Source: an uncultured bacterium (GTDB lineage Bacteria > Chloroflexota > Anaerolineae > B4-G1). From it: DNA of 64,000 nt. The notes below the pieces were generated by a model. That model was not told the origin of the DNA. It saw nothing but the letters and a program-made list of their open reading frames with translations, and did not search any database. The translations under genes were made by a program, and so were the position numbers. Below are positions 3,440-52,005 of this stretch, one piece after another. Every line of letters begins with the position of its first letter. Position 1 is the first letter of the stretch. Where the stretch lies: NCBI GenBank assembly GCA_965612745.1, contig CBFDTD010000001.1:6937-70936 (forward strand), written 5' to 3'.

Positions 3440-3640
3440 ATAATAACGGTCGTGCTAGACGGGGAGCTGGCGGTGCCCTGTACCCGCAATCCGCCATAGC
3501 GGGGTCGAATTCCCTCCCGAGGGTCGGGCCACTCGATACTGTCGGCGTCAAGCGGTGTTGAAGACCGGGTCCTGCGCGGCAGGAGCCTCCGAACCCCGCC
3601 AGGTCCGGGAGGAAGCAACGGTAAGGAGCCCCTCCTGGGC
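3440..3640 (+). promoter_or_regulatory. Candidate c-di-AMP (ydaO/kimA-type) riboswitch in the long 5' leader of the YabE-like gene
   Basis: Three blocks occur in the expected order. ACGGGGAGC...ACCCG is at about 3459-3490. GGGGUCGAAUUCC is at about 3503-3515 and resembles GGGGUGAAUCC. CCGAACCCCGCCAGGUCCGGGAGGAAGC is at about 3589-3616 and resembles CCGAACCCGNCAGCUAACCUCGUAAGC. A downstream hairpin, ggaggcggcgg-caatc-ccgccgcctcc, sequesters an AGGAGG. The consensus is recalled from memory and was not computed. Confidence 0.35.
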
Positions 3641-3768
3641 GCCGCAGGGGTGCCTAGTCGGAGCCGGTTGATTCCGGTAAGCCGGGTGGTGCGGTTCGAC
3701 GGGGGGTGCACGACCATTCGTCAAAGGAGGCGGCGGCAATCCCGCCGCCTCCCTTGCACCGATAGCGT

Positions 3769-10421: not shown

Positions 10422-10845
10422 GGGGATGACAGGCTTCGACGGGGAAGGCTGATCACGGACGGCAAGCCGGGGCGCTCTGCCCCCGTTAACAACGGAGCAC
10501 ACACTCCAAAGTGCCAACAACACTTGGATCCCTGTCCCGCAGGCCGCGATGGCTGCCGTTCCACTGGCGGCCTAATCCGGCCCGAGGGATAAACTGACCG
10601 CACAGACGGTCACGTCCGCCCTGGTCTCGCGCCGGCAGGCCGGGGGCCGGGCGTAAGAGAGCCGGCGTGCGGCGCTCTGACGCCGATAGGAGCGCTCAAG
10701 CGGGAGTTTCGGCTCCCATCGGCTAGGCCCGGGTGTAGCGCGGTCGGCGGCGACTCCCCGGGCGAGAGGTAAAAGGCCGACTATGCTTGTAGAAGTCCCT
10801 GGTCGAATTCCTCGGACGCGGGTTCGATTCCCGCCATCTCCACCA
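10422..10845 (+). ncRNA. ssrA: tmRNA (SsrA)
   Basis: The 5' end is GGGGAUGACAGGCUUCGACGGGG. The 3' end is a tRNA-like GGACGCGGGUUCGAUUCCCGCCAUCUCCACCA with an encoded CCA. An internal tag reading frame ends ...AAMAAVPLAA followed by TAA. Confidence 0.85.
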
Positions 10846-25798: not shown

Positions 25799-26047
25799 CT
25801 ACGCGACGGCGGCCGCCCGTCTGGGCTGCCGCTTGCGCCGATATACGGTGAAAACCACATCGGGGCAGATGATAGCGCACACCGTGCATCCGGTACACGC
25901 TTCCGGGTCCGTCACTTCGACGGGCCGATACCCTTTGGCATTGAACCGGTCCTCTGCCAGTTGGAGGATGTGCACGGGGCAGACGGTCACGCATAGACCG
26001 CATCCCTTGCAGCGATCCTCGTCAATGATGACCATTCCTTTTGCCAT
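25799..26047 (-). CDS. 2-oxoacid:ferredoxin oxidoreductase, delta subunit (2x[4Fe-4S] ferredoxin)
   Basis: Two CxxCxxCxxxCP motifs are present. Confidence 0.8.
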   Translation of the reverse strand: MAKGMVIIDEDRCKGCGLCVTVCPVHILQLAEDRFNAKGYRPVEVTDPEACTGCTVCAIICPDVVFTVYRRKRQPRRAAAVA

Positions 26048-26120
26048 ATTGTCCTCCGTATTTCATGTTGCTGAAGTGGCTGAAAGTCAACCAGGATTAT
26101 ACAACCGCCAACGTTGCCCG

Positions 26121-26651
26121 TCAATCTCCATTGCCAAAGGGCTGTCTCAGCCGTGCCTCGATCTGTGCCAACGCCGCGTCCAGTTGCTCCAGATAGCCGA
26201 CCAGCGGTGTCTCGGCGATGGCGATCTCTAGCGGCACATCTACATCCAGCGGCACTGTGGTGGCAATGCTCACCGTCTGGCTGACCGGCACGGTGAACTC
26301 CAGATCCACCGGAATGACGGTGCGGATGGGCACCTCTAGGTTGTAGGTAGTCACGCCCAGGTCAATGGGCACGATGACGGTGGTGTTGATTGGGATAGTT
26401 GTATTGATGGGTACGGTGACTTCTTCATTGAAGGGGATGCTGGTCGCGATGGGAATCTCCTGGTTCACTTCGAGGGTGTAGGAAAAGGTATCGTCGCCGA
26501 TGTCGGTGACGAGAGCGCGGGCGTCGGCCACCGTATCCAGGGCAATCTGCCGCGCCCGCATCAGGCTGAGGATGATGGTGGCATTGAGCGTCAGCGAAAG
26601 TAGCGTCAATATAGCCAGCACAATCAGGATCACGAGGTAGGCTTTCCTCAT
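26121..26651 (-). CDS. Hypothetical membrane-anchored protein with internally repetitive VPI/TTIP(I/V) segments
   Basis: It has an N-terminal TM helix followed by short repeats (PINTTIPINTTVIVPIDLGVTTYNLEVPIRTVIPVDLEFTVPV). It lies 15 bp downstream of the MTase-like gene. Confidence 0.45.
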   Translation of the reverse strand: MRKAYLVILIVLAILTLLSLTLNATIILSLMRARQIALDTVADARALVTDIGDDTFSYTLEVNQEIPIATSIPFNEEVTVPINTTIPINTTVIVPIDLGVTTYNLEVPIRTVIPVDLEFTVPVSQTVSIATTVPLDVDVPLEIAIAETPLVGYLEQLDAALAQIEARLRQPFGNGD

Positions 26652-26666
26652 CGGTGAACTCCTTGC

Positions 26667-28976
26667 TCAGAACAGTGGGATCTGGGCCACTTCTTGCTCG
26701 ACGATGGGGTCGAGGCCCAGCACGGTCTTGAGAGCGTGGCGGTCCAGTTCCTCCTTGGCGACCAGGCGGCGCAGATGACGAAACTTGATGAACTGCCATC
26801 CGCCCGCTTCGACGGCACTGGTCAGGCGCGGGTCGCGCTGCAATTTGAGGCCGACCAACTGTGCCCGCCCGCCGGGCAGGACAAGGCAACGCTGCGCCCC
26901 CTCATCAGCGGTGCGTTCGACGAGCAGGTGAGGCCCCAGGAGCGCCGTGGCCGAGACGGCGAAGACGTAAGCCTCCCGTCCTTCCTCCAGCCAGCGCACG
27001 TCCCAGCCATTGCCGCGCCGTCTCACCCTGAACCCCAGCCGTTTCCCTAACTTCACCAGATCACCACGCAGCGCCTTGAGTTCGGCGGCGCGCCGCTGAG
27101 GGTCGTCTTCGGGACGCAGTCGCCGTATCCTGTCTTCCTGCACACTGTACGAGTCTATGCAGACTTGAACCAGCGCCAGGTCGGGTGTGAGTGAGCCGGG
27201 GAAGCAGGCGTAGATAGCGTTGACCAATTCCTCCTCGTCCCACGTTGTACGCCGCCTCAGTAGTTCAAGCACCGTTGTTTCGACCCGGTCGGCCAGAGGT
27301 TCTTGCGCACCACAGGGGTCGGCCAGCCACCACAGCGGCTCATCGCCTGGCGCGGCCGTTTCCACTTGCACCAGCGGTGCCTTCTCGATGGCCTGCCGCG
27401 TGGTGTGAGCAGTGAAGCCAAGCGGGGGTGGGCCGTCATCGGGAAGGGCTGCGATGACGGTCAGCGCTCCCTCCCTGGTCAGCCCCGCATACACGCCGGC
27501 GTGCAGCATAGCCCAACCTGTCGGCTCCCCACGCTCCCGGAGGGTACTTACTGCTGCCTCCCCTGTCACGGTCGCTAGTTTGTGCTCCAGTACCTTCATA
27601 TCGGTCGTCGCATCTTGCCTCTTGCGTCTTGCCTCTTGCGGCTCCCAGCGCCAGACCAGCCGGTAGCCAACCTCGGGGCTGTAGCCCCAGCCCTCCAGGG
27701 TGTAGCCCGCGCCGCCGGCTGCCAGGCAGACCGATTCCAGCAGCGCGTCGTCGGGGTCGGAGAAGAGCGTGACCAGGTAGCCGTCGGAGGCGAGCAGCGG
27801 GCCGGCGGCCTCCAGCGCTCTCCGCAGCACGCGCCAATGCCACTCCCAATCGAACCTGCGGCGGCGCAGGAAGGGACGCATGGCTCGGGCGGCCGGCAAC
27901 TCCCATAGCCATCCCGCCCACAGCGCCGAGAGCGCCCAGAAGACCCCATCGGGCCGGGGCGGATCGGCGAAGATGAGAGAGACGCTGCCGGGCGGGACGA
28001 TCTCTCCTGCGTCGCGGGTCGCACGGCTGACCAGCGCGTACCCCTGGGCCTCGCCTCTCACCAGCGCCGTGACATCTGAAGCCTGCGGTATAGGAGACGG
28101 CGTCTCTGCGGTCAGCAAGCGCGAGAACCCCTCTTCAAAGCACAGCCAGACGTTGCGCTCGACATAGCGGGAGGGGACGCGCAGTGTGCGGGGGCGCGGT
28201 CGCTCCTCTCCGTAGGGGTCGAGGCTGGAGCCGGCATCGAAGCAATCGAGCAGTGTGCCGGTTAGTGCGACCTTGGCCTCCTCGTCGGCCTCCAGCCCTT
28301 CCAGCCGCAGCGCCAGATCCATCAATGCGGAGAGGTTGCGCGGCGTGTAGAGCGCGACCAGTTCGGCGGCCCGCTCCCGCGCCGGGTGGCCCGGGGGAGC
28401 CACGCGGTCGAGCGCGTAGTAGTAGGCCAGACCTCGCGGCAGGATGCGGCGGGCGGATGCGACATCCTCGTCGTCCGGCACCCCCTCCCGTACCTCCTCG
28501 CACCTGGGGCAGTGCACTGCTTTCCTGAACGGACGGCCCTCGTCGCGCTCCCAGGCGAACCACACAGCGGTGCCCGCCGCGCCGCAGGCCGGGCAGGTCG
28601 AGCGGTAGAGGGAGGTCAGGTAGCGGTGCAGAGGCACGTCCCCCTTGGGGCTATCGGCCAGGCGGGTGAAGGCGGCGTTGAGCGCGTCGGGTTCGCAGCG
28701 GCTCAGTCCCAGGCGAGCGATGACGAGGAGCAGGGGGTTGACGCTCAGGCCCAGTGCGCGGCGGTCAGCGGCGACCGTCTCCCGCACGAGCGTCGGCCCC
28801 TGGCAGAACAGGTCTACCACCAAGTCGCCGGGCCGAGTGAGGCTCTGCACGTATGCCCCCACCGCCCCGACCGGCTGAGTGGGGCGGTAGCGGGCCAACG
28901 GTCCGCCAGGTGCGCCTGGCCTTCCGGGGATGAACCAGGCTCGCTCGGTCGGGTGTGACTCGCGCAGGTCGTTCAC
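26667..28976 (-). CDS. Large (about 770 aa) methyltransferase-like protein with degenerate SAM and catalytic motifs and an inserted zinc ribbon. Its function is unknown.
   Basis: A motif-I-like VVDLFCQGPTL resembles the DxFxGxG loop but has the glycines replaced. DPPRP stands in for the (D/N)PP(Y/F) motif. There is a CPACG...CPRC zinc ribbon. The C-terminal roughly 300 aa show no recognised pattern. The start was chosen at an in-frame GTG (28976) preceded by a tatact -10-like box. The ORF-track N-terminal 50 aa look non-coding. Confidence 0.45.
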   Translation of the reverse strand: MNDLRESHPTERAWFIPGRPGAPGGPLARYRPTQPVGAVGAYVQSLTRPGDLVVDLFCQGPTLVRETVAADRRALGLSVNPLLLVIARLGLSRCEPDALNAAFTRLADSPKGDVPLHRYLTSLYRSTCPACGAAGTAVWFAWERDEGRPFRKAVHCPRCEEVREGVPDDEDVASARRILPRGLAYYYALDRVAPPGHPARERAAELVALYTPRNLSALMDLALRLEGLEADEEAKVALTGTLLDCFDAGSSLDPYGEERPRPRTLRVPSRYVERNVWLCFEEGFSRLLTAETPSPIPQASDVTALVRGEAQGYALVSRATRDAGEIVPPGSVSLIFADPPRPDGVFWALSALWAGWLWELPAARAMRPFLRRRRFDWEWHWRVLRRALEAAGPLLASDGYLVTLFSDPDDALLESVCLAAGGAGYTLEGWGYSPEVGYRLVWRWEPQEARRKRQDATTDMKVLEHKLATVTGEAAVSTLRERGEPTGWAMLHAGVYAGLTREGALTVIAALPDDGPPPLGFTAHTTRQAIEKAPLVQVETAAPGDEPLWWLADPCGAQEPLADRVETTVLELLRRRTTWDEEELVNAIYACFPGSLTPDLALVQVCIDSYSVQEDRIRRLRPEDDPQRRAAELKALRGDLVKLGKRLGFRVRRRGNGWDVRWLEEGREAYVFAVSATALLGPHLLVERTADEGAQRCLVLPGGRAQLVGLKLQRDPRLTSAVEAGGWQFIKFRHLRRLVAKEELDRHALKTVLGLDPIVEQEVAQIPLF

Positions 28977-29089
28977 GGTGTTCGTAGTATACCACCACAA
29001 GGGGGAGACGAAAAGTGATGAGTTGCTGGAGATTCCGCTTATGCTATAATGCACCACGTCTTGGCAAACCCACGCGGAGGTGAGGCAAT

Positions 29090-30280
29090 ATGCGTCACAG
29101 AGAGCACAGAAGGCGGCTACGCACATTGACGTGGATCACGGCCGGGTTAGCAGCGGTGGCACTCATCTCGGGCGCGCTGGGCGGCTGTGGCGGCGGGATG
29201 GCGGCTGTGACCCCCACACCGACCCGCACCCCTGCGCCCCCTGCGCCAACGGTCACTCCGCTCCCAACCTCCACGCCCACACCTGCCTCCACCCCTACTC
29301 CCACCCTTACTCCCACCCCCACGCCGTGGCCCGAAAACGTCAACCCGCTCACCGGCGAGGTGGTGGATGACCCTAGCCTGCTGGATCGGGTGCCGGTGGC
29401 GATCAAGATCTCTAATTACCCACCCCAGTACGTGTGGCCTCAGGCCGGCATCAACAGCGCCGACCTGATCTTCGAGCACTACAACGAAGGCTGGTTCGCC
29501 ACCCGCTGGACGGCGGTCTACCTGGGGAAGGACCCGGAGCGTGTGGGGCCGGTGCGCAGTGGTCGCCTGATTGACCTGGAGATTCCGGCGATCTACAAGG
29601 CGGTCCTGGCCTGCTCCGGCTTCAGCAATGGCGTGCTGGAGTTGGTCAGGAACTCGGACCTTTACCCCGACCGGGTCGCCTCGCCCAGCGTAGGCGTCGG
29701 TGAGCCGGTTTTCTACCGCGACTTCAGCCGTGACGTGCCTCTGGAACACACGATGTATACCAGCCCGGCGCTGGTGCGCACCTGGGCGGCTGAGCACGGC
29801 GTCGGCGGACGGCAGCATCTGGAGGGAATGGTCTTCTCCGAGGAAGCGACGGTCGAAGGGGAGCCCGCCACCTACGTCTATATCCCCTGGCATCTGCTTG
29901 ACGCCGAGTGGCGCTACGACGAGGCCGGCGGGCGCTACCTGCGCTGGTCCGATGGAGTCCCGCACACCGATGCGCTCGACGGGCGGCAACTCAGCGCGGC
30001 CAACGTGGTGGTGCTCTACGTGCCGCAGTGGGACACGGACATCATCGAAGAGCCGCACAGTGGCGCACTCTCCATCCAGTTTGCGCTCTGGTACTCCAAC
30101 CGCGCCATCATCTTTCGCGATGGAGTGCGCATTGATGCTTTCTGGCAGCGCTGGGAACGGGAGGACATGCTGACACTGACGGACGAGAAGGGCAACCCGA
30201 TCCCGCTGAAGGTCGGCAACACCTTCTTCGAAGTCGTTCCGGCCGGGGAACGGGAAATCGAGATTGTCGTTAAACCGTAG
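29090..30280 (+). CDS. Lipoprotein with a Pro/Thr-rich linker and a DUF3048-like (YerB-type) domain
   Basis: A lipobox (LGGCGG) and a PT linker are present. The mature domain's resemblance to the DUF3048 family is from memory and is low-certainty. Confidence 0.5.
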   Translation: MRHREHRRRLRTLTWITAGLAAVALISGALGGCGGGMAAVTPTPTRTPAPPAPTVTPLPTSTPTPASTPTPTLTPTPTPWPENVNPLTGEVVDDPSLLDRVPVAIKISNYPPQYVWPQAGINSADLIFEHYNEGWFATRWTAVYLGKDPERVGPVRSGRLIDLEIPAIYKAVLACSGFSNGVLELVRNSDLYPDRVASPSVGVGEPVFYRDFSRDVPLEHTMYTSPALVRTWAAEHGVGGRQHLEGMVFSEEATVEGEPATYVYIPWHLLDAEWRYDEAGGRYLRWSDGVPHTDALDGRQLSAANVVVLYVPQWDTDIIEEPHSGALSIQFALWYSNRAIIFRDGVRIDAFWQRWEREDMLTLTDEKGNPIPLKVGNTFFEVVPAGEREIEIVVKP

Positions 30281-30306: not shown

Positions 30307-30870
30307 TTACTCCTCAAACTTCTCCACCTGGTAGGTGTACACTTTGAGGTCGGAATGGCGGTAGGCATCGGCGGGCAGGAGGGCTTTGAGACACAGGTGT
30401 TGCAGGAACTGGTGTGGGTCCGGTAGTTTCTCCCACACCTGGGGGAGGAAGGTGGCCCGGTTCCATCCACGCTCGATGACCACGCCGTCCACGCCTGGGC
30501 GCAACTTGGCGATGAGGTCGTCAGGGCCATCGTAAGATAGCGGCTGAGGGAGGCTCAAGACGGAAATCTCGATGTGCAGGTCATCTAGCTCCTCTGGACG
30601 CAGGGGGGGGAAGCGGGGGTCGCGGAAGGCCGCGCCCACAGCGTTTTCGCGCACGTCCAGTACCAACGGGCGGCGCGGCTCCAAAGAGCCGATGCAGCCC
30701 CGCAACGCGCCGTGCTTGGTCAGCGTGACGAAACTGGCTCCGTCACGCCGCAGGTCCTCCGAGACTGCCTCCAGGTCCACCGGCGGCAGTTCCCGGTGAT
30801 AAGCCGTGCGTGTGATCGTCTCCCGCGCCAGTTGGAGCAGATAGCGACGATCCTCTGGTGAAAGGGGCAT
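30307..30870 (-). CDS. AmmeMemoRadiSam system protein A (AMMECR1 domain)
   Basis: The AMMECR1 pattern (LRGCIGSLEPRRPL) is present, and the gene sits in the conserved three-gene context. Confidence 0.8.
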   Translation of the reverse strand: MPLSPEDRRYLLQLARETITRTAYHRELPPVDLEAVSEDLRRDGASFVTLTKHGALRGCIGSLEPRRPLVLDVRENAVGAAFRDPRFPPLRPEELDDLHIEISVLSLPQPLSYDGPDDLIAKLRPGVDGVVIERGWNRATFLPQVWEKLPDPHQFLQHLCLKALLPADAYRHSDLKVYTYQVEKFEE

Positions 30871-30900
30871 CGTAGTTCCCTCCTTATGTCGTTGGCGTTC

Positions 30901-31704
30901 TTAATCCGTGTACGCGACCGAGGCGTAGCCTACGACCTGCCATTTGTCGCCCGCCGTGTCGCCAGAATTGCGGTAGTCCAGTAAGTGGGGGCTCCAGCCC
31001 TTGCGGCGGGCAATCCCCATCAGCGTCACTATAGGGGCACGGCCACAGGCTTCGCCTCTCAACACCCCCATCTCGTCGCCGGCCAGCAACGCCTCCAGCA
31101 GGGCGTGATCCAATTGTCGGGCCTTAGCATAAGGGTAGAAGTGGCTCAGATCGCTGGAGACGACGATCAGATCGTCCTCACCGATATGATCGGCCAGTTC
31201 CCCGGCCACCTCCCGTGGGTCCACGTCGCCGAACAGCATAGGCACCAGCCGGAAATCCGGCAGCGTCATCTGGAGGAATGGCACCTCGACCTCAAGGCAG
31301 TGCTCAGGCGCGTGGGCCTCCGGGGCGTGGGTGTAGAACGGCGAACGTGCCACCATCTCCGCGACCCGGTCAACGGCAATGGGAGCGTCGCCTAGCGGGG
31401 TGCGAAAAGCGGAGTAGTCCCCCAGTGCCACGCCGCGGAAGTAGGCACGGTGGGCCGGCCCCAGTAGAAACACAGTCCACTTCTTCTGGGGCAGCGCGGC
31501 CAGCGCTTTGAAGGCATATCCGGCAGTAGGGCCGGAGTAAATGTAGCCGGCATGGGGTGCGATGATGGCGCGGACGGGTTCCAGGTCCTCAGGCACAGTG
31601 GCCATGTCGAGGTACTCCTGGATCATCTTGCGCAGCGTATCGGCGTCGCCAGGGTAAAACTGGCCGGCAACAGCCGGCCGACGGATGGGTAATTCACCTC
31701 TCAT
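30901..31704 (-). CDS. AmmeMemoRadiSam system protein B (Memo-like)
   Basis: The Memo family pattern (PAVAGQFYPG...IIAPHAGYIYSGPTAGYAF) is present. The start was set at MRGEL after the ggagg RBS. Confidence 0.8.
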   Translation of the reverse strand: MRGELPIRRPAVAGQFYPGDADTLRKMIQEYLDMATVPEDLEPVRAIIAPHAGYIYSGPTAGYAFKALAALPQKKWTVFLLGPAHRAYFRGVALGDYSAFRTPLGDAPIAVDRVAEMVARSPFYTHAPEAHAPEHCLEVEVPFLQMTLPDFRLVPMLFGDVDPREVAGELADHIGEDDLIVVSSDLSHFYPYAKARQLDHALLEALLAGDEMGVLRGEACGRAPIVTLMGIARRKGWSPHLLDYRNSGDTAGDKWQVVGYASVAYTD

Positions 31705-31739
31705 AACCCACCTCCTCAATCTTGACGTCCCCTTCCGGA

Positions 31740-31850
31740 GGCCCCGCTTCAGCGGGGATTTTCCGGCTGAAGCCGGACGTTCCACTCCGGCGGGCTCGCT
31801 TCAGCGGTGATTTTCCGGCTGAAGCCGGACGTCCCACTGATTTTAGCATA
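31740..31850. repeat. Two tandem REP-like double-hairpin units (ccccgcttcagcgggg / ccggctgaagccgg)
   Basis: These are family copies of 6128-6186 and 56802-56850. Confidence 0.5.
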
Positions 31851-32091
31851 AATATCGTGACTACTCAGCCACCCCGCCGAACTCAGAATCGGACGCAGAT
31901 TCGCGCAGATTTTCGCAGATAAGATCAAAAAATCAGCGTTTATCAGCGTTCATCTGCGTCCTAAAGAATACGTTTCAACGCTCTGCCTGGGGATGGCTGG
32001 GCAGTTACTAAATATCTTTAAATCGCAGTTCGATTTTCAGTAGTGCCGGTCCAGGGTGGTATCGCTGCAATGCAGGCATACCTCTGATTTT

Positions 32092-33114
32092 CTACGCCCA
32101 TACTCCCGCGATCGAATATCCGCATTTAGGGCACATCCCGCGTTCGGTCCATAACTCCCTCACACTGTACCAGCGGCGCTGGATCAGTTTTTGCCCGCAC
32201 TGGGGACAATACGTGCTCTCCCGATCCGCATCCATCACGTTGCCCACGTAGACGTAGTGCAATCCGGCCTGTTTGCCGATCTCGTAGGCGCGGGCCAGCG
32301 TGCGCTGAGAAGTCGGCGGTCGGTCGAGCATCTGATAAGCGGGGCGAAAGGCAGTGATGTGCCAGGGCATCTCCGGGTCCACCTCTGCCAGCCACTCCGC
32401 CGTCGCTCGCAGTTCCTCTTCGGAGTCATTGAGCCCGGGGATCAGCAGCGTGGTGACCTCGATCCAAATATTGGTCTCGCGGGCGATATGGGCGATGTTG
32501 CGCTTGACCGGTTCCAACCGCGCCTGGCACTGCTCGCGGTAGAACCCCTCGGTGAACGCTTTCAGGTCCACGTTGATGCCGTCCAAATAAGGCTCAATCA
32601 TATCGAGCGCCGCCTGTGACATATAGCCGTTGGAGACGTAGACGTTTTTGATCCCGTGCTCGTGGGCCAGTTTTGCGGTGTCGTAGGTGTATTCAAAGGA
32701 GACAGTGGGCTCGTTATAAGTGTAGGCGATCATCGGGATATGGTCTCTGAGACAGGTATTGACAAGCGCCTCAGGCGGTGCATGTTGTCCCAGATAGTCG
32801 CGCTGATCGTCAAAGTCGCGTATCTGTGACATCTGCCAGTTCTGACAGAAGGGACAGCGAAAGTTACAGCCATAGGTACCGATGGAAAGGATATCGCCAC
32901 GGGGCATGAAGTGGAAAAGAGGCTTCTTTTCAATGGGGTCTACGTGGACCGCGATAGCCTCTCCGTAGACAACCAGGTAGAGTGTGCCATCAATGTTCCG
33001 GCGCACACCGCACTTGCCTGCCTCGCCTGGCTTGACAGCGCAGAAGTGCTCGCAGACCTGGCACTGCACAACGTCGCCCGAAAGCGGTTTGAGGAGATAG
33101 GCTTCCTTACGCAT
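32092..33114 (-). CDS. AmmeMemoRadiSam system radical SAM enzyme
   Basis: The CxxxCxxC pattern (CNFRCPFCQNW) is present, and there is an N-terminal Cys-rich region (CQVCEHFC...C). Confidence 0.85.
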   Translation of the reverse strand: MRKEAYLLKPLSGDVVQCQVCEHFCAVKPGEAGKCGVRRNIDGTLYLVVYGEAIAVHVDPIEKKPLFHFMPRGDILSIGTYGCNFRCPFCQNWQMSQIRDFDDQRDYLGQHAPPEALVNTCLRDHIPMIAYTYNEPTVSFEYTYDTAKLAHEHGIKNVYVSNGYMSQAALDMIEPYLDGINVDLKAFTEGFYREQCQARLEPVKRNIAHIARETNIWIEVTTLLIPGLNDSEEELRATAEWLAEVDPEMPWHITAFRPAYQMLDRPPTSQRTLARAYEIGKQAGLHYVYVGNVMDADRESTYCPQCGQKLIQRRWYSVRELWTERGMCPKCGYSIAGVWA

Positions 33115-44702: not shown

Positions 44703-46400
44703 ATGAAGCGGTGGGGATACTGGATCATCGTCGGAGTGGTGTCACTGGCCTTGGCTGCCCTGATCGGATGGGCCACCACTTACACTCCGCTGTTGACGCC
44801 CTCTGCGTCGGAGGAGTGGAGCCGGGGGCGGCTCCTCGGCGTGACGCCGGTGAGTATTCCGGTGGATGTCCAGGCGGCCCCCGATGGTGGGGTGTTCCTA
44901 ACCTGGGTGGACCTCGACGACCGGCTACACGTGGTGCGATTGGGGACAAGCGGGCAGGTCATCGCAGACTGGACGCCTGGCGTGGGAGCGGACATCCCAC
45001 GGGAACCGCGTCTCCTTGTGGGACCGGGAGACGAGATTCATCTTATCTGGCGGGAGACGGGTGGGGGACGCTCACTCTTGACCTATGCCCGGCTGAGCAG
45101 CGGGGCCTCTGTGCAGGTTGGCCCGCTCTCCCTTTCGCTGCCGGGGGATGAGGCCCAATCCCCATGTCTGGCTTTCGACCGTCAGGGCGAGGTTGAGGTC
45201 TTCTGGGTCGGCCAGGCGGGTATCTACCAGGTTGCCCTCAGCGCCGAGGGGGAGGTGCAGGGCGACCCTGTCCTGCTGGTCGAAGGTGGTGAGGACGTCA
45301 GTATCCAGGTGGACCGAGAGGGCATCTTCCATCTCACCTGGCTACAGGGGATGGGGCCAAACGAGAGGGTAATCTATTATGCTTTACTTGATCCAGAGCA
45401 GGGGGACTTGAGCCAGCCGGAGGAGATGAGTAGGGTCTTTCTACGTACCGGTCAGCGTGTGGAAAGTCTCGCCGTGGGCATTGATAGCAGTACGGGCTAC
45501 ATCTTGTGGGTTATCCAGGACTTGAGGGACATCAGTTCCAGAGCCCAGTATGCTTTCTTTCCTCTTGAGATACCGCGGCAGAAGAAGGTCAGGACCCTGC
45601 AGCTGGACGAGGGGAGCGATCCGCTGAGCCTTTGGGCTATGCGCGGCCAGTACGAGACGTTGCTGGTCGCCCTGACTGAGACCACTATGACGCCAGATGG
45701 CCCACAACTTCAAATCGGCGTCATCGGCTTGCGCGGCGAGCAGACGTCAGAGAATGCCGTTTGGGCAGCGGTTGAAAATCGGGGATCAACGACCGTCGTT
45801 GACCAGAGCAGTTGGCCGGAGGATCAGTACATCGTCACTGCTTCGGATCGCCCCTCCCTCAAGCCAAGTTTGGCAGTGGATACACAGAGCCATCTCCATC
45901 TGGTCTGGCTGGAGACCGGGGGCTTCGGAGTGTACCGTGTGGCCTACGCCAGCACCGCTCCAGGGGTGAAGGAGAATTATAATGCCTTGACCTTGTGGGA
46001 TGTAGTCAATGGTGCTTTGAGCGTCGCTATGCAACTTTTCCTGGCAGTGGGGCTGGCACCGGTCCTGGCTGTTGGTTGGTCTCTACTTCCTCTGATGTGG
46101 TTGATCGGCTATCATCTGGTCACCGGGTATGAGACCCTGACGGTACCGGGAGCACGAGTGGCCCTGGGCGTATCTGTGTTGCTGGAAGTGGTGTGCACGT
46201 ATTTGCTCTCTCCTTATCGAAGCGGCGTGCCTGGAATGATTCGGTGGATTGTGCCGCTTGCTGTTGCTGCTGTTGCTCTACTGTTAACCATGCTGTATCT
46301 GCGGAAGCGGGATGAGCAGTCCTTATTTGGGGCTTTCTTTGTCTTCGCTCTCATCTACGGTTTTTTTCAAGTGGCGTTTGTGGCACTCCTGCATTTGTAG
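44703..46400 (+). CDS. Hypothetical membrane protein with an N-terminal TM helix, a roughly 400-aa extracytoplasmic repeat (beta-propeller-like) region and a C-terminal four-TM bundle
   Basis: There are recurring strand motifs (HLIWRETGG, VEVFWVGQAG, FHLTWLQGMG, GYILWVIQD, LHLVWLETGG), and the ends are hydrophobic. No family was recognised. Confidence 0.45.
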   Translation: MKRWGYWIIVGVVSLALAALIGWATTYTPLLTPSASEEWSRGRLLGVTPVSIPVDVQAAPDGGVFLTWVDLDDRLHVVRLGTSGQVIADWTPGVGADIPREPRLLVGPGDEIHLIWRETGGGRSLLTYARLSSGASVQVGPLSLSLPGDEAQSPCLAFDRQGEVEVFWVGQAGIYQVALSAEGEVQGDPVLLVEGGEDVSIQVDREGIFHLTWLQGMGPNERVIYYALLDPEQGDLSQPEEMSRVFLRTGQRVESLAVGIDSSTGYILWVIQDLRDISSRAQYAFFPLEIPRQKKVRTLQLDEGSDPLSLWAMRGQYETLLVALTETTMTPDGPQLQIGVIGLRGEQTSENAVWAAVENRGSTTVVDQSSWPEDQYIVTASDRPSLKPSLAVDTQSHLHLVWLETGGFGVYRVAYASTAPGVKENYNALTLWDVVNGALSVAMQLFLAVGLAPVLAVGWSLLPLMWLIGYHLVTGYETLTVPGARVALGVSVLLEVVCTYLLSPYRSGVPGMIRWIVPLAVAAVALLLTMLYLRKRDEQSLFGAFFVFALIYGFFQVAFVALLHL

Positions 46401-51930: not shown

Positions 51931-52005
51931 GCCCCCATCGTCTAGTCTGGTCTAGGACACGGGCCTTTCAAGCCCGCGACAGGGGTTCGAATCCCCTTGG
52001 GGGCA
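51931..52005 (+). tRNA. tRNA-Glu (anticodon UUC)
   Basis: A cloverleaf was read by eye. The acceptor stem is gccccca/ugggggc, the T-arm is agggg-uucgaau-ccccu and the anticodon loop is cuUUCaa. CCA is not encoded. Confidence 0.85.

Follow-up and report, generated by a model that had tools for sequence, protein, structure and literature searches.

The window analysed here is a stretch of DNA of 64,000 nucleotides (64 kb) from an uncultured bacterium of the Anaerolineae (Chloroflexota), and all positions below are those of this window unless a related locus is named. Its minus strand carries two neighbouring genes, a large one (26667–28976) encoding 769 amino acids (aa) and a small one (26121–26651) encoding 176 aa. 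The large protein has the ancestry and topology of the zinc-ribbon N6-adenine methylases of the BREX (bacteriophage exclusion) type-3 kind (PglXI/BrxXI, COG1743-like). The glycine loop, the ribose-binding acid and the (D/N/S)PP(Y/F/W) loop are lost throughout its Anaerolineae family, and its C-terminus ends in a peptide of the type carried by clients of the beta sliding clamp (DnaN). According to the explanation that we consider best, and that has about an even chance of being right, the large protein is an exapted, non-enzymatic pseudo-methyltransferase/pseudo-nuclease, which binds DNA, is docked on DnaN and acts on clamp-marked, newly replicated DNA.

Methyltransferase ancestry of the large protein

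Scans of the large protein against Pfam, NCBIfam and PHROGs gave no significant match. To N6_N4_Mtase (PF01555) and DUF1156 (PF06634), which a first-pass annotation made from the letters alone had named as possible families, the query has no match at E ≤ 1, and DUF1156 was matched in no search. Two of ten distant relatives reach 24 bits with PF01555, under the cut-off of 26.7. The methyltransferase models of PADLOC (including MTase_II) match aa 27–167 (best 2.2e-11), and its PglXI model matches aa 164–357 (4e-5).

Annotated DNA methyltransferases, collinear with 94–96% of aa 27–360, were retrieved by tblastn against plasmids. A Thiospirochaeta plasmid methylase, which scores 2.3e-23 with PF01555, is similar to the large protein over aa 27–429 (BLASTP 5e-22). 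A haloarchaeal methylase from Halorarius, which matches the PADLOC PglXI model at 1.1e-85 and is encoded immediately upstream of BrxA and PglZ genes, is similar to the large protein by BLASTP (1e-20) and by hhalign (98.9% probability, E 3e-17, 381 columns). The alignment of the large protein to the BREX methylase does not go past aa 430–505. The family profile gave, among PDB sequences, a marginal match to the Thermus beta-class methylase 2zie (E 0.49), which is useful as an alignment and not as proof; here aa 27–75 stand against motif X/I of 2zie and the DPP region against its SPP(Y), the chain order being opposite.

The layout of the ancestor is kept in the N-terminal 445 residues: motifs X, I and II, then an insert of ~230 aa with a zinc ribbon, then motifs III–VIII. 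Residues 1–27 are predicted to be disordered (AlphaFold2, predicted local distance difference test (pLDDT) <50). A peptide conserved in the family, F-I-P-G ... P-L-A-R-Y-x-P (aa 14–50, 28827–28937), leads into a motif X-like helix and aligns to the motif X region of 2zie and of the BREX methylase. It is followed by Rossmann strands 1 and 2 (28734–28826), placed by secondary structure, alignments and family counts, with the degenerate motif I VVDLFCQGP (aa 53–61) and motif II GLSVNP (aa 76–81). The alpha+beta insert between core strands 2 and 3 (aa 82–312, 28041–28733) is delimited by the model, the collinear alignment and the PADLOC PglXI match. It holds the motifs YTPRNL and ERNVW and stands where BrxXI-type methylases have their target-recognition domain.

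Within this insert lies a four-cysteine zinc ribbon (aa 124–165, 28482–28607), modelled as beta-hairpins. An alignment was made of 141 family representatives, each from a different 50%-identity cluster; the counts and percentages for conserved residues below refer to this set. The cysteines C128, C131, C156 and C159, noticed in the first-pass annotation as a CxxC...CxxC ribbon, are conserved at 99–100% and align with those of the BREX methylase.

Rossmann strands 3–7 (aa 313–445, 27642–28040), assigned from the model, the alignments and the family profile, contain the loop DPPRPD at the motif IV position (aa 338–343, 27948–27965), a Trp-rich helix FWALSALWAGWLW and a basic segment RRRRFDWEWH; of the DPPRPD loop, the family profile conserves only P-R-P-(N/D). 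The strand order in the model (aa 52–55, 73–77, the insert 82–312, then 313–316 and 332–337) is that of a class I (Rossmann) methyltransferase core. This core is predicted with pLDDT >90 (AlphaFold2), and its best structural neighbours are the amino-methyltransferases Trm14, TrmN and Trm11. A Foldseek search of the full model against the PDB found no multi-domain analogue, with matches to methyltransferase cores only, at E>0.02.

Motif by motif, the segments VVDLFCQGPTL (aa 53–63) and DPPRP (aa 338–342), which had been read at first pass as motif I-like and motif IV-like, align to motifs X/I and IV of genuine PF01555 methylases. Motif I reads VLEPFMGSGVT in the plasmid methylase, VLDSMCGSGST in the BREX methylase and VVDLFCQGPTL in the large protein. 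For motif II the three sequences are GLDINP, LNDVSP and GLSVNP, and for motif IV they are FTDPPYGE, FIDPPYGD and FADPPRPD. Two further family motifs are retained: LYTPRNLTAL of the BREX methylase corresponds to LYTPRNLSAL, and E(I)NVW corresponds to ERNVW.

Methylases of the BrxXI/PglXI type (BREX type-3) and the 'BR' methylases of the DUF499 system have an insert of ~250 residues between core strands 2 and 3 with a four-Cys zinc finger at its tip, as well as a DNA-binding C-terminus of ~280–300 aa (PMC12839542). The large protein resembles these DUF1156/COG1743 enzymes in its Rossmann DAM-type core, in the ~230–250-aa insert between strands 2 and 3 with its four-Cys finger, in YTPRNL and E.NVW, in length (769 aa versus 803 aa), in collinear homology over ~400 residues and possibly in a C-terminal region of ~300 aa built of helix-turn-helix (HTH)-type DNA-binding modules. 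It differs in its degenerate motifs I, II and IV and in a C-terminus that cannot be aligned, where a restriction-endonuclease-like fold replaces the third HTH and a clamp-type peptide forms the end. Its gene differs as well: it has a housekeeping context and an Anaerolineae-only distribution, and no BrxC/DUF499 ATPase, helicase or PglZ neighbours. The beta-class N4/N6 methyltransferases (PF01555; TTHA0409/2zie, CcrM) align with the large protein in the motif X/I and strand-3/motif IV regions. In 2zie the halves are circularly permuted, motif I being C-terminal there and N-terminal in the large protein; the large protein also stays below the Pfam threshold and has lost the catalytic motifs.

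Loss of the catalytic motifs

The motif IV signature (D/N/S)PP(Y/F/W/H) is present in 0 of the 141 representatives. The G.G of motif I remains in 4/141, and an acid at the end of strand 2 (motif II) in 11/141; in the protein of the window the ribose-binding acid is replaced by Ser (GLSVNP). The first residue of the motif IV position is usually Ala or Val in the family profile, with Arg in place of the aromatic residue. The subclade of the window keeps D-P-P, with Arg-Pro where the aromatic residue stood. Thus the replacement of the glycines of the S-adenosylmethionine (SAM) loop and of the aromatic residue after DPP, described at first pass for this copy, is a property of the whole family. No characterised methyltransferase with all catalytic residues aligned was found; the homologous methylases that do align have these residues, and the large protein has others in their place.

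The substitutes are themselves strongly conserved. The family consensus at the old motifs is DPFG-x-SP, (A/N)NNP and x-(L/P)-P-R-P-(N/D), and P81 (98%), N80 (87%), P340 (91%) and R341 (96/141) stand out. Such residues could mean that the large protein is still an enzyme, with its pocket rebuilt around DPFGxSP/NNP/PRP(N/D) for an unusual SAM or another nucleotide-like cofactor and carrying out a non-canonical DNA (or RNA) modification, possibly clamp-coupled to replication. This possibility, which we regard as unlikely, is favoured by the conservation of the replacement motifs across clusters at ≤50% identity, by the core pLDDT above 90 and by Trm14, TrmN and Trm11 as the nearest structural neighbours. 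Against it, the glycine loop, the acidic ribose ligand and the D/N and aromatic residue of motif IV are all gone family-wide, motif IV mostly begins with Ala/Val and has Arg for the aromatic residue, and no Pfam or NCBIfam methyltransferase model is reached above threshold. With the conserved replacement motifs taken into account, a pseudo-enzyme is graded as the more likely reading and an enzyme with a rebuilt pocket as a less likely one. Of the two first-pass alternatives, a pseudo-methyltransferase scaffold and an enzyme of novel chemistry, the scaffold is the better supported and novel chemistry the less likely.

C-terminal half and clamp-type tail

The C-terminal part (aa 446–769) was modelled separately, with pLDDT 89.7. 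The roughly 300 residues in which the first-pass annotation had recognised no pattern do have one: two winged helices, a restriction-endonuclease-like fold and a terminal clamp-type peptide. The model shows, in order, a long helix, two helix-helix-helix-hairpin units and an alpha-beta-beta-beta-alpha-beta unit. The long helix and the two winged-helix domains occupy aa 446–620 (27117–27641). The last unit (aa 621–745, 26742–27116) has the alpha-beta-beta-beta-alpha-beta core of restriction endonucleases (PD-(D/E)xK fold) and lacks a conserved catalytic triad. The D...(D/E)xK pattern is not conserved: D659 is found in 42/141 representatives, and the strand-3 positions 668–670 are P/A/V, variable and Y/F/H. 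Conserved residues of this domain are D/E632, W662, R704, K711, W727 and K731. The domain looks like an inactivated, or at least non-canonical, nuclease fold in the model. Compared with Type IIS endonucleases such as FokI or N.BspD6I, the large protein differs in the unconserved D...(D/E)xK and in the fusion of the module behind a methyltransferase-like body. The C-terminal 324 aa gave no match in tblastn against plasmids.

The C-terminal tail (aa 746–769, 26670–26741), predicted to be disordered (pLDDT <50), ends in QIPLF (aa 765–769, 26670–26684), and disorder of the last 15 residues is predicted in both models. Q765 is conserved at 97% and L768 at 82%. An exact terminal Q-[LIMV]-x-[LMIF]-[FLIWM] is present in 109/141 representatives (for example QIPLF, QLSLF, QLPLF, QMRLF and QLRLL), and 11 of the other 32 have hexapeptide-type or near-terminal variants such as QIPLPL, QLTLPL, QMSLPL and QLHLPL. 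Among 1479 unrelated open reading frames (ORFs) of these loci that are 150 aa or longer, 1 has such a terminus.

The C-termini of bacterial beta-clamp clients carry QL(S/D)LF (PMC9690074). In the large-protein family, too, a conserved peptide of this type is placed in a disordered terminus. The second known clamp-binding form is QLxLxL (Hda, Pol IV), and terminal peptides of one or the other form are found in Pol II, Pol IV, UmuC, Hda and MutS/MutL. The penta- and hexapeptide forms interchange at one position in the family, as expected of a genuine clamp-binding motif. The QIPLF tail may dock on DnaN. With clamp clients the family shares a conserved Q-[LIM]-x-L-[FL], or QxxLPL, at the end of a disordered tail; we know of no clamp client with a methyltransferase-like or nuclease-like body of this kind. 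In eukaryotes DNMT1, a methyltransferase-fold protein, is brought to the PCNA clamp by a short Q-containing peptide; this is a functional analogy only, DNMT1 being active and of an unrelated lineage and the large protein appearing inactive. The MutS of a related metagenome-assembled genome (MAG) (locus L005, 16167–16601, minus strand) has QPVLF, a motif of the clamp-binding type, in its C-terminal linker, at the position expected from other bacteria.

Proposed role at the sliding clamp

An ancestral BREX type-3-like zinc-ribbon N6-adenine methyltransferase could have been domesticated ('exapted') in Anaerolineae and would no longer methylate or cut DNA. The large protein could bind DNA with its recognition insert and its winged helices, and possibly also with a pocket for bases that was remodelled around the conserved P-R-P-N/D loop. 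Its C-terminal peptide would occupy the hydrophobic cleft of DnaN, and by this docking the large protein would act on DNA that is newly replicated or marked by a clamp. In the subclade of the window the small single-pass membrane protein may be a partner, a link that is not family-wide. The complete scenario, where a defence methyltransferase captured by the ancestor of Anaerolineae lost its catalysis and came to ride the clamp as a reader of newly replicated DNA and, in one subclade, the membrane partner could tether replicating DNA to the envelope, is put forward tentatively and is rather doubtful as a whole.

Several points weigh against a clamp-docked pseudo-enzyme. Conserved DPFGxSP, NNP and PRPN/D could mean that a ligand pocket or an altered catalysis is retained, and the high conservation of D/E632, R704, K711 and K731 makes a non-canonical nuclease active site possible. 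The C-terminal domains have no sequence similarity to the HTH triad of BrxXI; two winged helices are present, and the third module has a restriction-endonuclease-like fold. The clamp motif consists of few residues, and Pro or Arg often takes position 3 in place of Ser or Asp. No DNA-replication or repair gene is consistently adjacent to the large gene. A LexA/SOS link was considered and dropped: GAAC-N4-GTTC sites occur in the window no more often than by chance, and none lies upstream of the large gene.

If the clamp-riding reader is real, it would be a replisome accessory factor not known before (e.g., for strand/state discrimination, for organising the nucleoid or for controlling replication). 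It would show clearly how an enzyme of phage defence was domesticated, throughout a bacterial class, to serve as a housekeeping DNA factor without catalysis, and it would add a new type of client to the 'tool-belt' of the bacterial sliding clamp. The parent methylase family is known. The class-wide degenerate derivative with a nuclease-like C-terminus and a clamp-type tail was not found in the literature searched and has no database model. The family comprises more than 2000 clusters of ~750-aa proteins, which lack a Pfam or NCBIfam model and are nearly always labelled 'hypothetical'; Chloroflexota genomes would be better annotated with such a model and an informed name.

Small gene and the two-gene arrangement

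The small gene is separated from the large one by a spacer of 15 nt (26652–26666), with the Shine-Dalgarno sequence AAGGAG (26659–26664) 7 nt upstream of the small-gene ATG. No terminator-like or promoter-like site lies between the two genes. The small protein has one hydrophobic N-terminal helix (aa 4–30, single-pass), a conserved GDDTFSYT segment and a C-terminal helix. In its beta-rich region (aa 65–142) the motif [IV]P[IVFL] recurs ten times (aa 66–141) at a spacing of 6–13 residues, in line with the first-pass description of a membrane-anchored protein made of micro-repeats. The repeats exist in the protein only, no DNA-level repeats being found in the small gene by Tandem Repeats Finder.

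The small protein has 250 homologues, of which the closest (99%) is from a Thermoflexia MAG. Profile searches against Pfam, NCBIfam, PHROGs and the PDB gave no significant match for it. A LEA_2/WHy beta-sandwich was rejected, with PDB 1xo8 as the only match at E 0.93 and LEA_2 in 0/36 members. A SPOCS/arrestin-like (or LEA_2/WHy) label is likewise unsupported (E 0.008–0.9, few members).

A hidden Markov model detects the small gene in 37 related loci, in all of them immediately downstream of the large gene and in the same orientation, and look-ups started from the small protein show the same adjacency. The two genes are probably co-transcribed in the subclade of the window. This arrangement is confined to the subclade with at least 48% identity: no locus at ≤~42% identity has the small gene downstream of the large gene, and some closer loci (L005/L014, L022, L024 and L045) lack it too. 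The loci without it have as neighbours of the large gene PBP1, DUF2085, an FHA protein, a giant surface protein (unrelated or convergent) or, upstream, pyruvate kinase. The two-gene operon of the first-pass annotation is therefore real in the lineage of the window, but, being absent from distant clades, it is a late clade-specific addition and not the core function of the family.

The large and small proteins could alternatively form a membrane-associated complex with its main role outside replication (e.g., in envelope or nucleoid-membrane organisation), in which the Q..LF peptide would bind a partner other than DnaN. This agrees with the 15-nt gap, the strong Shine-Dalgarno sequence and the lack of a predicted terminator, with the adjacency conserved in 37 loci and in the small-gene-centred look-ups, and with PBP1-type and DUF2085 membrane proteins among the neighbours in other clades. 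It is nevertheless quite improbable, since the tail motif is still there in the loci at ≤~42% identity and in L005/L014, L022, L024 and L045, from which the small gene is gone; moreover, the small protein has no family match, and every domain of the large protein is of DNA-enzyme ancestry.

A near-consensus sigma-70-type promoter (TTGACG-17-TATAAT, 11/12 matches; 26096–26124, minus strand) overlaps the stop codon of the small gene. It precedes the genes for ferredoxin (25799–26047) and 2-oxoacid:ferredoxin oxidoreductase.

Distribution and genomic context

One scan of GTDB species genomes found 74 loci of the large gene, one copy per genome, with identity down to 26%. All of them are in Anaerolineae-type MAGs except two probable mis-binned contigs, and the named cluster members of the family are likewise Anaerolineae. 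Thermoflexus and Pelolinea are among the genera whose MAGs carry a homologue. The window itself is core chromosome, with rpsB, a response regulator, 2-oxoacid:ferredoxin oxidoreductase, an AMMECR1-Memo-radical SAM trio, a ROK kinase, rho, rpoB, signal recognition particle (SRP) RNA and transfer-messenger RNA (tmRNA).

Neither the window nor the related loci contain partner genes of restriction-modification (R-M), BREX or DISARM (defence island system associated with restriction-modification) systems, and no BrxC/DUF499 ATPase, helicase or PglZ accompanies the gene. The neighbours are instead DUF3048, AMMECR1/Memo/radical-SAM, ferredoxin/2-oxoacid oxidoreductase, pyruvate kinase and PBP1. The first-pass statement that helicase, nuclease and restriction partners are lacking thus stands for the surroundings, while a nuclease-like module, with unconserved catalytic residues, is present inside the large protein itself. 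Its view that an R-M or BREX module is unlikely also agrees with the lack of partner genes, and descent from BREX type-3-like methylases is to be added to it.

Synteny around the large gene is stable within clades and clade-specific, without defence genes; across all clades examined, no one gene is linked to the large gene. G+C-rich shadow ORFs confounded the clustering of neighbourhoods, an all-versus-all BLAST of stop-to-stop frames, which was used only for clade-specific neighbours checked with Pfam.

This distribution bears on whether the large protein could be an active orphan N6-adenine DNA methyltransferase of the ordinary kind, or a methylase left over from an R-M/BREX system. One partial family member is automatically annotated as 'site-specific DNA-methyltransferase', relatives give sub-threshold PF01555 matches, and there is homology to BREX methylases. 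Activity of this kind is highly improbable given that canonical motif IV occurs in 0/141 representatives, partner genes were not found nearby, the distribution is vertical, class-wide and single-copy in housekeeping contexts, and plasmid and phage family collections gave only distant methylases.

The DUF3048 gene (29090–30280, plus strand) is divergent from the large gene, and the promoters of both must fit into the 113-bp spacer; 24 related loci keep DUF3048 as a neighbour. In loci L001 (6762–7780, minus strand) and L003 (6701–7811, minus strand) of close relatives, two small genes (~125 and 147–158 aa, no Pfam match), absent from the window, lie between DUF3048 and the large gene. On the minus strand at 30307–33114 stand AMMECR1 (30307–30870), a Memo-like gene (30901–31785) and a radical SAM gene (32092–33114), i.e., the known 'AmmeMemoRadiSam' trio, which also flanks the large-gene locus in related MAGs.

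In one lineage only (L081/L082, 891–1541, minus strand), LexA is the divergent upstream neighbour of the large gene, followed by FtsK. In the clade of ~40% identity (L047–L056), a conserved convergent gene of ~100 aa (MTWDIKPGHEKKYF...) and a surface protein of more than 1250 aa (1559–1654 aa where complete) are encoded ~100–450 nt downstream of the large gene on the minus strand. Neither of these two proteins has a significant Pfam match.

Gene model of the large gene

The idea that the long frame does not code and is only a by-product of high G+C content, suggested by the local G+C of 0.63–0.68 and the many shadow ORFs overlapping the frame, retains a negligible probability and is refuted by hundreds of full-length homologues at 26–99% identity with invariant residues, conserved length and a confident predicted fold. 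Both genes, reported at first pass as ~770 and 176 codons lying 15 nt apart, are real. The large protein has 339 close homologues (61–99% identity), all from Anaerolineae/Thermoflexia metagenomes and every one labelled 'hypothetical'. Among 1.84 billion cluster representatives, the family profile matches 2061 clusters (50% identity) at E ≤ 1e-3 and 557 at E ≤ 1e-30; almost all are ~750 aa long and aligned end to end.

The ORF at 26667–29126 on the minus strand has 819 codons counted from its first ATG, and other in-frame starts extend the large gene as far as 29126. In an alignment of 27 homologues, conservation starts at AWFIPG, and several homologues begin with MND.. at the alignment column of GTG 28976. 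The best model is for these reasons the 769-aa one, 26667–28976, with a GTG start at 28976 and TGA at 26667–26669. The upstream ATG at 29126 would run into the divergent DUF3048 gene. An extended -10-like element, TGGTATACT (28977–28995, minus strand), is located 9–17 nt upstream of the GTG, where no Shine-Dalgarno sequence is present; the mRNA from which the large gene is translated may have no leader or a very short one.

The length of the homologue is unusual in locus L044 (5959–9067), 3.1 kb versus 2.3 kb with two overlapping ORFs, which could be due to an insertion, a duplication or an assembly problem. In the long-read MAGs L075, L078 and L079 the homologue is split into 3–5 ORF pieces, probably by long-read frameshift errors; these are probably not pseudogenes.

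Other features of the window

Between two genes of SBP_bac_5 solute-binding proteins lies an ORF of 565 aa (44703–46400, plus strand) without a Pfam match at 1e-5. RNA genes of the window, all on the plus strand, are the SRP RNA of the large bacterial type (3450–3713), the tmRNA (10422–10845, 424 nt matched) and a tRNA (51931–52005).

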